Sequence record: PP925828.1
Reading direction: 5' to 3' (one strand)
Source: Escherichia phage SpoonbillGilly
Length of the DNA: 64,000 bases
Part shown: positions 40,122-41,899 of the stretch, one piece after another
Layout of the letters: each line of letters opens with the position of its first letter
Position numbering within the stretch: position 1 is the first letter of the stretch
The notes under the pieces: model-generated
The model's database searches: none
Told to the model about the DNA's origin: nothing
The model's input: the letters and a program-made list of their open reading frames with translations, nothing else
Program-made: the position numbers and the translations under genes

Positions 40122-40150
40122 TAAAGACCCCTTGACATTTTCGCTGGGGT
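40122..40150 (+). promoter_or_regulatory. candidate sigma70 promoter for plus-strand cassette (-35 TTGACA 40122-40127; -10 TAAAGT 40145-40150)
   Basis: 17-bp spacer; weak -10. Confidence 0.4.
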
Positions 40151-40221
40151 AGTGTAAAGTATATGTTATGGATGAGTGATCAAAGAGACACACATTTTCT
40201 ATATACTAGGAGGTGTCAAAA

Positions 40222-41208
40222 ATGACAGATGAAGTAACTAAGAAACCTGAGACCATAAGTGAAGTCGCAGCAGAACTGAGACGTCATGAGGAATCAGACA
40301 AACATAAGTGGGAGAAGGTCAAAGCCTACGAAAAAGAACATCGTGAACACGATGAAGATGATGAAGAAGATGACGATGATGAACATTGTCATAAACATGG
40401 AAAACATAAAATGCAAGAACCAGTAAACGTATTCACTAGTGGCTTCCCTGGCCTAATGGGTGGTTATCCAGCAGTTGCTAACGGTGCTTTCGGTGGTGAA
40501 GGTATGGGTCTATTCGGAGCTATCTTAATCGGTGCTCTATTAACAGGTGGATTCGGTGGTTTCGGTGGTTTTGGCCGCGGTGCTGGTGTTGCCGCTGAGG
40601 GAACTGCTGTGGACGCGATCCTTTCTAACCAGGATACTGCAAGTATTCTAGCTGCAATCAACACTACTCGTACTGAAGCTAATCAGGGTACTGGTGCTGT
40701 TCTGAGTGCAGTAAATGGTGTAGGAGCTGCTCAAGCTGCTAGTACTCAACAGCTTCTGACTACGATCTACGGTACTGGTGCTAACCTGTCCAACCAGATC
40801 TGTCAGGAAACTCGTAACGTTATTCAGGGTCAGTTCGATCTTTCTCGCCAGATGGATCAAGCTTTCGCTGCTAACCAGATCGCACGTGCTCAAGACAAGT
40901 TCGATACCGCTCAGATCATGTTTGCTCAGTCTATCCAGACTAACAACCAGTTCGCTGCTGTAGCTGCTCAGGCTTGTGCTAACCAGAACGCTCTGGAACG
41001 TCAGATCGCTGAATGCTGCTGTGAACTTCAGTCTGCAATCGCTGGTGTAACTACTGCGCGTATTCAGGACGAACTGAACGAATGCCGTCTGCGTGAAGCT
41101 ATCGCTCAGGGTAGTGGCGCTAACGGTCAGGTAATCAACCAAATCGCTGTAAGTCTTGGTGCTATCACTCAGACTCTGGCTGGTCTGCAGGCTAAACTGC
41201 CGGCTTAA
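40222..41208 (+). CDS. hypothetical low-complexity protein (acidic His-rich N-terminus, Gly-Phe repeats, Gln/Ala-rich C-terminal half)
   Basis: ATG 40222 after AGGAGG; codon usage enriched for GGT/GCT/CTG/CGT unlike neighbours. Confidence 0.6.
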   Translation: MTDEVTKKPETISEVAAELRRHEESDKHKWEKVKAYEKEHREHDEDDEEDDDDEHCHKHGKHKMQEPVNVFTSGFPGLMGGYPAVANGAFGGEGMGLFGAILIGALLTGGFGGFGGFGRGAGVAAEGTAVDAILSNQDTASILAAINTTRTEANQGTGAVLSAVNGVGAAQAASTQQLLTTIYGTGANLSNQICQETRNVIQGQFDLSRQMDQAFAANQIARAQDKFDTAQIMFAQSIQTNNQFAAVAAQACANQNALERQIAECCCELQSAIAGVTTARIQDELNECRLREAIAQGSGANGQVINQIAVSLGAITQTLAGLQAKLPA

Positions 41209-41230
41209 TAATTAAGGGGAGGAGCCCATC

Positions 41231-41650
41231 ATGAGTAAATATGGTTTTGTGAACAACGGATTTAATCAAAGTATGGGCTCCCAGCAGCCCGTTCCGGGGC
41301 TTGATAACCCCTACTTACAACAGTTGCAACAGAGATTGGCAGAAGCACAGCAAATGCAAAATTCCCTGCAAAACCCGCAGGGAAACATCAACCAGATGCA
41401 AATGCAGCCGCAAATGCAAATGCAACAAATGATGCCTCAGCAGATGATGCCTCAGCAAATGCAACCACAGCAGCAGATGACCCAACAAACCCAACAACCG
41501 CAGGTATCTGCGGAAGGACAGGCTGTTCTAGCCCTTTTCGAAGACTTCGCTAAAACAGAGGATGGAAAGCAACTTGTATCACTTATGGGTAAGTTTAACA
41601 GTTTCTGTCAAAGTCAAGTTGCAAAAGCGCAAAATGGGGAGAAATCCTAA
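41231..41650 (+). CDS. hypothetical Gln/Met-rich low-complexity protein
   Basis: 139 aa; GGAGG RBS. Confidence 0.55.
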   Translation: MSKYGFVNNGFNQSMGSQQPVPGLDNPYLQQLQQRLAEAQQMQNSLQNPQGNINQMQMQPQMQMQQMMPQQMMPQQMQPQQQMTQQTQQPQVSAEGQAVLALFEDFAKTEDGKQLVSLMGKFNSFCQSQVAKAQNGEKS

Positions 41651-41659
41651 GGAGTTTAT

Positions 41660-41854
41660 ATGTGTTGTAGAAAACCTACGTCATGCTGCCCAATGCCTGT
41701 AGCACGTTGTTGCTCTCCAGCAATGTTTACGCAAATACCGGTGTTCAATCCGTTTGCCTTTAAGCCTACTCTTATCCTGCCCCCTAGAGTAGATTTTCAG
41801 TCAAGATTGGTCTCCCGTATGGGTGGTTGCTGTAACAAGAGTATATGGTTCTAA
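41660..41854 (+). CDS. hypothetical Cys-rich small protein (CC doublets)
   Basis: 64-aa ORF. Confidence 0.45.
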   Translation: MCCRKPTSCCPMPVARCCSPAMFTQIPVFNPFAFKPTLILPPRVDFQSRLVSRMGGCCNKSIWF

Positions 41855-41863
41855 ACCAAAAAC

Positions 41864-41899
41864 AAAGCCCCTGCCGAAAGGTAAGGGGCTTTTCTTTTG
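41864..41899 (+). terminator. intrinsic terminator
   Basis: 7-bp stem agcccct/aggggct then tttcttttg. Confidence 0.8.

Follow-up and report, generated by a model that had tools for sequence, protein, structure and literature searches.

What do three plus-strand genes, placed antisense in a block of minus-strand early genes, contribute to a T5-like phage? The question is raised by positions 40,122 to 41,899 of a 64,000-nucleotide stretch of the Escherichia phage SpoonbillGilly genome (PP925828.1), the whole of which we call the window. A sequence-only reading of this locus had described a self-contained three-gene cassette of low-complexity proteins with host-like, high-expression codons. Based on comparative analysis of the genes, their control elements and their relatives, we tentatively favor, with somewhat less than even confidence, the interpretation that genes 1, 2 and 3 form a dispensable, horizontally exchanged ‘moron-type’ accessory operon, which would encode a cysteine-linked, probably membrane-associated complex with an envelope-directed role. 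The operon would then stand outside the replication, virion and core lysis machinery. Most of our confidence in this interpretation comes from the accessory-operon part, and little from any specific activity.

Judged by its closest relatives, the window is T5-like phage DNA. The 2-kb stretch that holds the operon is 99.8% identical to its closest database record, ‘Campylobacter phage A148’, and ~98-99% identical to Escherichia phage IrmaTschudi and the Salmonella phages EH2, EH3 and EH5, and annotated close relatives (Seabear, vB_SenS-AKM_ECS) are placed in Epseptimavirus (Demerecviridae, Markadamsvirinae). The A148 record (MG065642) lists Campylobacter jejuni as host; all of its relatives are Salmonella/E. 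coli Epseptimaviruses, and the host label looks doubtful.

The same trio of genes, in the same order, is present in the T5-like phages and in three other genomic backgrounds. These are a distant T5-like contig of ~114 kb (L009), in which protein 1 is ~40% identical; two lambdoid contigs (L006 and L007), in which the unit lies antisense between the Q antiterminator gene and the holin/lysozyme/Rz genes; and a contig (L008) that is 98.9% identical to the Pseudomonas aeruginosa siphovirus KPP23, in which the trio corresponds to ORF074-072. The complete trio is also present in ‘Pseudomonas phage RSP’, a genuine phage of the KPP23 type. Across these unrelated phages the trio and its motifs are 37-47% identical. 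On the metagenomic contigs L006-L008 gene prediction missed gene 3, which is nevertheless present no more than ~10 nucleotides after gene 2 and keeps an MCC...CC...CC pattern. An intrinsic terminator is found within ~40 nucleotides of the end of gene 3 in L006 and L008, with a second terminator upstream of the module in L008, and no E. coli-type consensus promoter was found for the lambdoid and KPP23 copies, the hosts of which are probably Pseudomonas. A scan of viral contigs returned only T5-like phages. The distribution shows that the trio travels as a unit between unrelated phages.

Both laboratory stocks and natural phages occur without the operon. In the annotation of the T5 st0 genome a recombination site connects T5p066 with T5p079, and by tblastn the three proteins and the protein of the convergent SPFH gene are absent from the corresponding region of st0, with all four present in wild-type T5. 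T5st0 is a standard working laboratory phage. The deletion in T5Mos (30661-38625) cuts into gene 1, and a recently sequenced BF23 stock is without ORF071-075, although the older BF23 record has the genes. Among 458 records that match the surrounding 4 kb, ~222 encode protein 1. Salmonella phage vaffelhjerte is without the equivalent of window positions 40070-41822, keeping a degenerate end of gene 3 and the terminator, and Escherichia phage HildyBeyeler is without ~40194-41900, keeping a remnant of the P12 promoter; the flanking genes are directly adjacent in both. Since the junctions differ and control elements were left behind, the module appears to be ancestral and to have been lost several times, rather than recently gained. 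These cases show that the operon is dispensable for lytic growth and has been lost repeatedly without loss of viability. The SPFH gene was deleted together with the cassette in T5 st0 but is kept in natural phages that are without the cassette; therefore, the two are not an obligate pair.

Although dispensable, the three genes are real and all subject to purifying selection: the median ratios of nonsynonymous to synonymous substitution rates (dN/dS) among 21 T5-like copies are 0.14, 0.13 and 0.26 for genes 1, 2 and 3, respectively. Codon usage differs within the operon. The codon adaptation index (CAI) was computed for the 109 open reading frames (ORFs) of the window with the E. coli weights of Sharp and Li. 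Gene 1 ranks sixth (CAI 0.53; window mean 0.30, standard deviation 0.10), and its CAI rises along the gene, from 0.39 (residues 1-150) to 0.58 (151-225) and 0.79 (226-328). Between residues 76 and 328 it uses GCT for 38 of 47 Ala, GGT for 26 of 33 Gly, CAG for 22 of 27 Gln, AAC for 14 of 16 Asn and ATC for 15 of 18 Ile. By the measure of its codons, gene 1 shows itself built for high expression. Genes 2 and 3 have CAI values of 0.26 and 0.21; both use CAA at least as often as CAG, and AGA is used. Thus, the high-expression codons that the sequence-only reading had ascribed to the whole cassette hold for gene 1 (mainly its 3' half) and not for genes 2 and 3. Nor do they set the cassette apart from all of its surroundings, as had been suggested: the convergent SPFH gene, at a CAI of 0.56, is above gene 1. 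The highest CAI in the window (0.60) belongs to a minus-strand ORF at 45995-46633; by position it is apparently T5.085, which is called a ‘tail fiber protein’ in RefSeq despite its location in the early region. Gene 1 also contains an antisense ORF (40648-41142, minus strand, 164 amino acids, Ser/Leu-rich), which is best explained as a by-product of the GCT/CAG/ACT-rich codons of gene 1 and not as a gene.

Protein 1 comprises an N-terminal helix (residues 12-45), an acidic/His-rich spacer, an EPVNVF motif, a glycine-rich hydrophobic segment (residues ~94-118) and an Ala/Gln-rich domain (residues ~129-324) that is predicted to be all-helical and has three invariant cysteines at 265-267. Conservation is concentrated in the N-terminal helix (V-A-A-E-L-x-R-H-E-x-S-D-K-K), the motif M-x-E-P-V-N-V-F, the hydrophobic segment (G-x-F-G-A-I-L-I-G-A-L-L-x-G-G-F-G-G-F-G) and the domain of ~200 residues, rich in Ala, Gln, Asn and Thr, in which an invariant Q-A-C-x-N-Q-N-A-L and the invariant Cys-Cys-Cys are followed by D-E-L-x-x-x-R-L and by a C-terminal G-Q-V-I-N-Q-I-A-V-S-L-G-A-I-T-Q-T-L-A-x-L-Q. 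The acidic/His-rich stretch varies in length and sequence even among T5-like phages. A Fourier test for a heptad periodicity of 3.5 residues was not significant (p = 0.19), and we rejected a continuous coiled coil for protein 1 on this result. No feature is conserved more widely across the protein 1 superfamily than the glycine-rich hydrophobic segment, and this argues for a role at the membrane or in oligomerization; in the T5-like phages the segment has a KD19 value of 1.72 and an apparent free energy of insertion (dGapp) of +1.6 kcal/mol. Many members have a basic or His-rich stretch ahead of the segment, and His-rich tracts recur just before the EPVNVF motif in several distant ones.

In protein 2, a variable Gln/Met/Pro-rich spacer separates the N-terminal helix, which is conserved, from an equally conserved C-terminal domain of ~40 residues with the pattern F-x-x-F-A-x-T-x-D-G-K ... 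K-F-x-x-F-C-Q-S. The protein has no signal peptide, and its Gln/Met-rich stretch is replaced by Pro/Gln/Ala-rich spacers in relatives. Protein 3 is cationic and Pro-rich, begins with MCCRKPTSCC and contains four CC doublets; it has neither a hydrophobic signal region nor a lipobox, and the same is true of its homologs in L006, L008 and L009. The peptide motifs quoted in the sequence-only reading are all found verbatim in these ORFs. Its description of low-complexity proteins applies to the linker segments, which are the least conserved parts of the alignments, and not to the conserved cores; on the alignments, the acidic/His-rich and Gln/Met-rich tracts are variable spacers. In AY587007, Seabear, ESCO40 and UniRef, homologs of gene 2 go by the name ‘cAMP-dependent protein kinase catalytic subunit (kapc)’. 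We rejected a kinase identity, given that the protein has only 139 amino acids and no Pfam hit at E ≤ 0.1; the name is an annotation error that spread from AY587007.

An exhaustive HMMER search over 1.84 billion representative proteins returned only five clusters below 1e-30 for protein 1, along with about fifteen weak matches that share its architecture. A profile search then recovered a sister subfamily of protein 1 that is without the Cys-Cys-Cys motif (CCC), in which a homolog of gene 2 follows gene 1 in all three members whose context was read. The cysteines of the three proteins vary together. Every member with a CCC-type protein 1 has F/Y-C-Q-S in protein 2 and the CC-peptide gene next; in the three contexts of the sister subfamily, protein 1 has no CCC, protein 2 has F-V-Q-S, and there is no small Cys-rich ORF. 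This covariation is the best clue in the sequences that the three proteins may work through their cysteines. Charge also differs between the subfamilies: the segment that precedes the hydrophobic one is basic in several sister members, and the CCC subfamily, in which the cationic peptide is present, has an acidic N-terminal region. The most distant members lie on contigs (L030, L031, L035 and L036) too short to inform on context. One weak family member, the metagenomic protein P0039 (334 amino acids), has an E-C-C-C-E-L-K motif; its N-terminal part resembles the catalytic domain of mRNA capping enzyme (E = 1.7e-5, 25.2 bits, below the Pfam cut-off of 29.6), and it may be a mis-called fusion or a CCC domain in a very different virus.

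The anatomy of the operon was already part of the T5 and BF23 records at the time of their deposition. The orthologous stretch of T5 is annotated with promoter P12, T5.077, T5.078, T5.079 (all hypothetical proteins) and an ‘efficient bidirectional rho-independent transcription terminator’; BF23 likewise has P12 and a bidirectional terminator around ‘ORF 326aa / 138aa / 64aa’. The T5 proteins are 88%, 83% and 94% identical to those of genes 1, 2 and 3, and T5 shares gene order, promoter position, terminator and SPFH neighbor with the window. The elements predicted for the operon and the genes beside it are listed below.

Table. Elements of the three-gene operon and of its immediate surroundings in the window.
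Feature	Position	Strand	Remarks
Sigma-70-type promoter	40132-40160	+	-35 TTGACA, 17-nucleotide spacer, -10 TAAAGT; 10/12 consensus matches
Shine-Dalgarno sequence of gene 1	40208-40213	+	AGGAGG (sequence); ribosome-binding site annotated at the equivalent place in Seabear and BF23
Gene 1	40222-41208	+	328 amino acids; ortholog of T5.077, PHROG 8119
Shine-Dalgarno region of gene 2	41214-41224	+	AAGGGGAGGAG (sequence)
Gene 2	41231-41650	+	139 amino acids; ortholog of T5.078, PHROG 7894
Shine-Dalgarno sequence of gene 3	41649-41654	+	AAGGAG (sequence); overlaps gene 2 stop codon
Gene 3	41660-41854	+	64 amino acids; ortholog of T5.079
Intrinsic terminator of the operon	41864-41899	+	hairpin 41864-41892, then U-tract UUUUCUUUUG
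Terminator hairpin of the SPFH gene	41944-41914	-	convergent with the operon terminator
PnuC-like nicotinamide riboside transporter and NadR-like nicotinamide mononucleotide (NMN) adenylyltransferase/ribosylnicotinamide kinase genes	38222-40007	-	left neighbors
SPFH/Band 7 gene	41968-42912	-	Pfam E = 2.9e-19; ‘lipoprotein’ in RefSeq

The layout given in the sequence-only reading is upheld by these features: the three plus-strand ORFs, each preceded by a strong Shine-Dalgarno sequence, have minus-strand genes on both sides; the candidate promoter lies within the stretch equivalent to P12 of T5, in agreement with the BF23 annotation; and the operon terminator, at the site equivalent to that annotated in T5, converges with that of the SPFH gene. 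The operon hairpin has a folding energy of -22.2 kcal/mol (z = -4.6), and none of 200 shuffled sequences folds as well. In the T5 study, the section on primer extension names P11, PH22, Ppol, P15A, PJ5 and PG25, and that section does not mention P12. A search of 39900-42100 gave no Rfam match at the gathering score; therefore, gene 3 is not a known RNA element. A GCGC site at ~41919-41925 lies inside the SPFH terminator hairpin, where T5 and BF23 are annotated with ‘major nick 3, 32.6%’, so that a classical T5 nick (major single-strand interruption) is apparently located in a terminator stem. The T5 records themselves differ at this locus. In AY587007 (T5 ATCC 11303-B5; 38160-38950, read as L032) two ORFs (ORF072 and ORF073) take the place of gene 1 and an annotation of gene 3 is missing, and NC_005859 has a single ORF of 321 amino acids for gene 1; the discrepancy at gene 1 is either a sequencing frameshift or an annotation difference.

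The cassette is situated at the right edge of a tRNA-rich early region (27 tRNA genes, 28961-43225, all on the minus strand). The left neighbor in T5 is T5.076, a TOPRIM ‘primase’ now named Rad anti-retron, and the window has NadR/PnuC genes instead; a single locus thus holds two different accessory/counter-defense cargoes in the two phages. The authors of the BF23 paper term the Rad locus an anti-defense island, and T5 tRNAs of the same deletable region counter PARIS and retron effectors. Elsewhere, the gene immediately after the module is a HAD_SAK_2 (PF18143) phosphatase-like one in L008 (7694-8149; KPP23 ORF071) and in L041 (9196-9675). It comes after both a CCC-type trio (L008) and a non-CCC pair (L041), in related Pseudomonas-type phages, and could either be additional accessory cargo or have a functional link to the module. 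The homolog of protein 1 in L041 and L042 is encoded between a MuF/minor-capsid gene and the scaffold and capsid genes. The cassette and its homologs all sit where phages carry genes that they can do without.

Neither single-protein nor profile searches of Pfam, NCBIfam, PADLOC and PDB sequences gave a match for the three proteins, the 38 members of the protein 1 family gave no significant Pfam hit, and no metal-binding family was matched by any of the three. PHROGs contributed only two matches, both to families of ‘unknown function’ (8119 and 7894). Thus, the three proteins do belong to no known family, as had been supposed on first reading, and the searches brought up no homology to well-characterized structural proteins.

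Among known systems, the closest likeness is to phage morons (lambda bor/lom, HK97 gp15, the lambdoid Q-to-lysis cargo), which likewise have their own promoter and terminator, are present or absent between the same flanking genes, occur in unrelated backbones (including the Q-to-lysis slot) and are dispensable. Unlike morons, the module has three genes rather than one, and in the Markadamsvirinae it appears to be ancestral with repeated loss, not a recent insertion; unlike conversion morons, it is found mostly in virulent phages, with no prophage copy in 185,579 representative genomes. In the Rz/Rz1 spanins, too, a protein with a hydrophobic segment near its N-terminus and a long helical domain containing Cys is paired with a small Pro-rich peptide, likewise containing Cys, that is encoded nearby. 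They differ in that the small peptide of our trio has no lipoprotein signal, in that the trio has no sequence or profile similarity to Rz, a third protein and a location outside the T5 lysis cassette, and in that the hydrophobic segment of protein 1, unlike that of an i-spanin, is ~95 residues from the N-terminus and a marginal transmembrane helix. T4 Imm/Sp, T5 Llp and P22 SieA are functional analogs only: they too can be lost under laboratory conditions and lie outside the core modules, and their target is the envelope, as is proposed for the trio, but they have no sequence relationship to the trio, consist of one or two proteins and have no Cys-cluster features.

The proposed mechanism, read from the protein sequences, is as follows. 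The three genes form one self-contained unit, with transcription predicted to run from P12 through all of them to the intrinsic terminator. Protein 1 would be anchored at the cytoplasmic membrane by its glycine-zipper-like hydrophobic segment, lying in or on the membrane, with its N-terminal helix and charged spacer facing the cytoplasm. Protein 2 may serve as a two-domain adaptor with a variable spacer, and protein 3 as a cationic, Pro-rich and CC-rich partner; the three would be joined through their cysteines, in a metal-thiolate cluster or by disulfides. Such a complex could alter the envelope of the infected cell in favor of the phage, most likely by excluding competitors or by blunting a membrane-linked host defense. 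An exclusion or anti-defense role at the envelope would explain both the place of the operon among accessory/anti-defense genes and its needlessness on laboratory hosts. We consider it possible, and rather unlikely, that the trio is a previously unrecognized three-protein, cysteine-held (metal/redox) membrane complex for exclusion or anti-defense that is swapped among Demerecviridae, lambdoid and KPP23-like phages and, jointly with this, that it belongs to a wider, equally uncharacterized superfamily of protein 1/protein 2 pairs in many uncultivated phages.

Several results weigh against the interpretation of the operon as encoding a membrane-associated, envelope-directed complex. The hydrophobic segment is only a marginal transmembrane helix, with a dGapp that rises from the value given above for the T5-like phages to +4 to +5.8 in distant members, so that its insertion is not assured, and the topology is pulled in opposite ways: the Ala/Gln-rich, low-charge helical domain of protein 1 looks extracytoplasmic, and proteins 2 and 3 have no export signal. 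AlphaFold models of protein 1, built from 13 and 38 aligned sequences, have mean confidences (predicted local distance difference test, pLDDT) of 50 and 53, a predicted template modeling score (pTM) of 0.2 and mostly long, unpacked helices; the only structural feature that we take from them is a probable all-helical C-terminal domain. A Foldseek comparison of these models with the PDB found no match better than E = 3. The cysteine covariation reflects one split between two clades and hence one evolutionary event. PADLOC defense models gave no hit at E ≤ 0.1 for the three proteins or the SPFH neighbor, and neither a relative nor a prophage copy was found in bacterial genomes (one per species, 185,579 species), which gives no hint of lysogenic conversion from a prophage, as is typical of classical morons. 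The literature that we searched has no mention of T5.077-079, of ORF072-074 in the T5 sense or of the PHROG identifiers, and the supplements of a T5 RNA-seq paper have no entry for T5.077-079.

Two other explanations place the proteins in known phage machinery, and we regard each as unlikely. The trio could encode head-associated or assembly proteins, made late, as internal or ejected capsid proteins or as a membrane site for head assembly. This would suit the codon bias of gene 1, which is that of an abundant protein, and the distant gene 1 homologs on the structural strand between MuF/minor-capsid and scaffold and capsid genes (L041, L042) or near terminase and portal genes (L039, L006). It would also suit the position of the operon on the plus strand, opposite the minus-strand early genes; the plus strand presumably carries the T5 late genes as well. 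However, T5st0, without the operon, makes infectious virions in routine use, and mass spectrometry of KPP23 virions identified nine proteins, none of them ORF072-074. The module also brings a promoter and a terminator of its own and, in L006, runs antisense to the late operon, and accessory genes of other kinds, such as HAD_SAK_2, likewise occur between MuF and scaffold genes. The published KPP23 data and the T5st0 virions, which are without the genes, make it unlikely that the operon products are virion components. A role as a lysis accessory, in which protein 1 would be fusogenic, spanin-like or holin-modulating and protein 3 a cationic membrane-active peptide, together breaching the envelope at the end of infection, is suggested by the genes nearby: the module adjoins the holin/lysozyme/Rz genes in L006/L007, lies close downstream of an amidase gene in L029 and has a cell-wall hydrolase gene within 3-5 kb in T5 and L009. 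Protein 3 is suitably cationic and Pro-rich, and the order of a Gly/Ala/Phe-rich hydrophobic segment and then long helices is reminiscent of viral fusion peptides and i-spanins. Against such a role, protein 3 has no lipobox and protein 2 no signal peptide, an hhalign comparison of the protein 1 family with the Rz of L006 (PF03245) was null (probability 0.4%), and the module is antisense to the lysis cassette in L006, a contig with its own Rz; KPP23 is catalogued with its own two-component spanin, and T5st0 is propagated routinely without the module. The candidate identity of a two-component spanin was rejected on the missing lipobox, the null profile comparison and the carriers' own spanins.

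A cytoplasmic assembly away from the membrane, either a low-complexity scaffold or condensate or a soft-metal/redox buffer formed by His-, Met- and Cys-rich proteins, has only a slim chance in our judgment. It would accommodate the lack of export signals in proteins 2 and 3 and a hydrophobic segment too weak for a confident transmembrane call in distant homologs, and tracts of His, Met and vicinal Cys, considered by composition only, are typical of metal-binding residues, those rich in His recurring before EPVNVF in several distant members. Yet the Gln/Met-rich and acidic tracts are not conserved, being replaced by Pro/Ala/Gln-rich or basic spacers in relatives; what is widely conserved is the glycine-rich hydrophobic segment, and no metal-binding family was matched. 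We think it very improbable that the locus is decaying or selfish filler DNA without function for the phage. Its frequent loss from laboratory stocks and natural isolates would fit that explanation, but purifying selection acts on all three genes, the signals for transcription and translation (promoter, terminator, Shine-Dalgarno sequences) are intact, unrelated phages retain the trio with its motifs at the identities given above, and the codons of gene 1 are optimized.

Several counter-defense functions (tRNAs against PARIS and retrons; Rad) have recently been traced to the tRNA-rich deletable region of T5, a classical model phage; T5.077-079, at the edge of that region, is one of its few self-contained operons. 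Our analysis turns three hypothetical proteins into a defined, testable unit and demonstrates movement of the cassette among phages of Enterobacteria and Pseudomonas. Pairs of carriers and non-carriers exist, namely wild-type T5 versus st0 and Mos and, in BASEL, GreteKellenberger, IrmaTschudi and IrisVonRoten versus HildyBeyeler and SuperGirl. If the operon were neutral, the analysis would still correct database annotation, for example the false ‘kinase’ name; if the accessory operon is indeed an exclusion or anti-defense device, it would bring a new protein family to that field.

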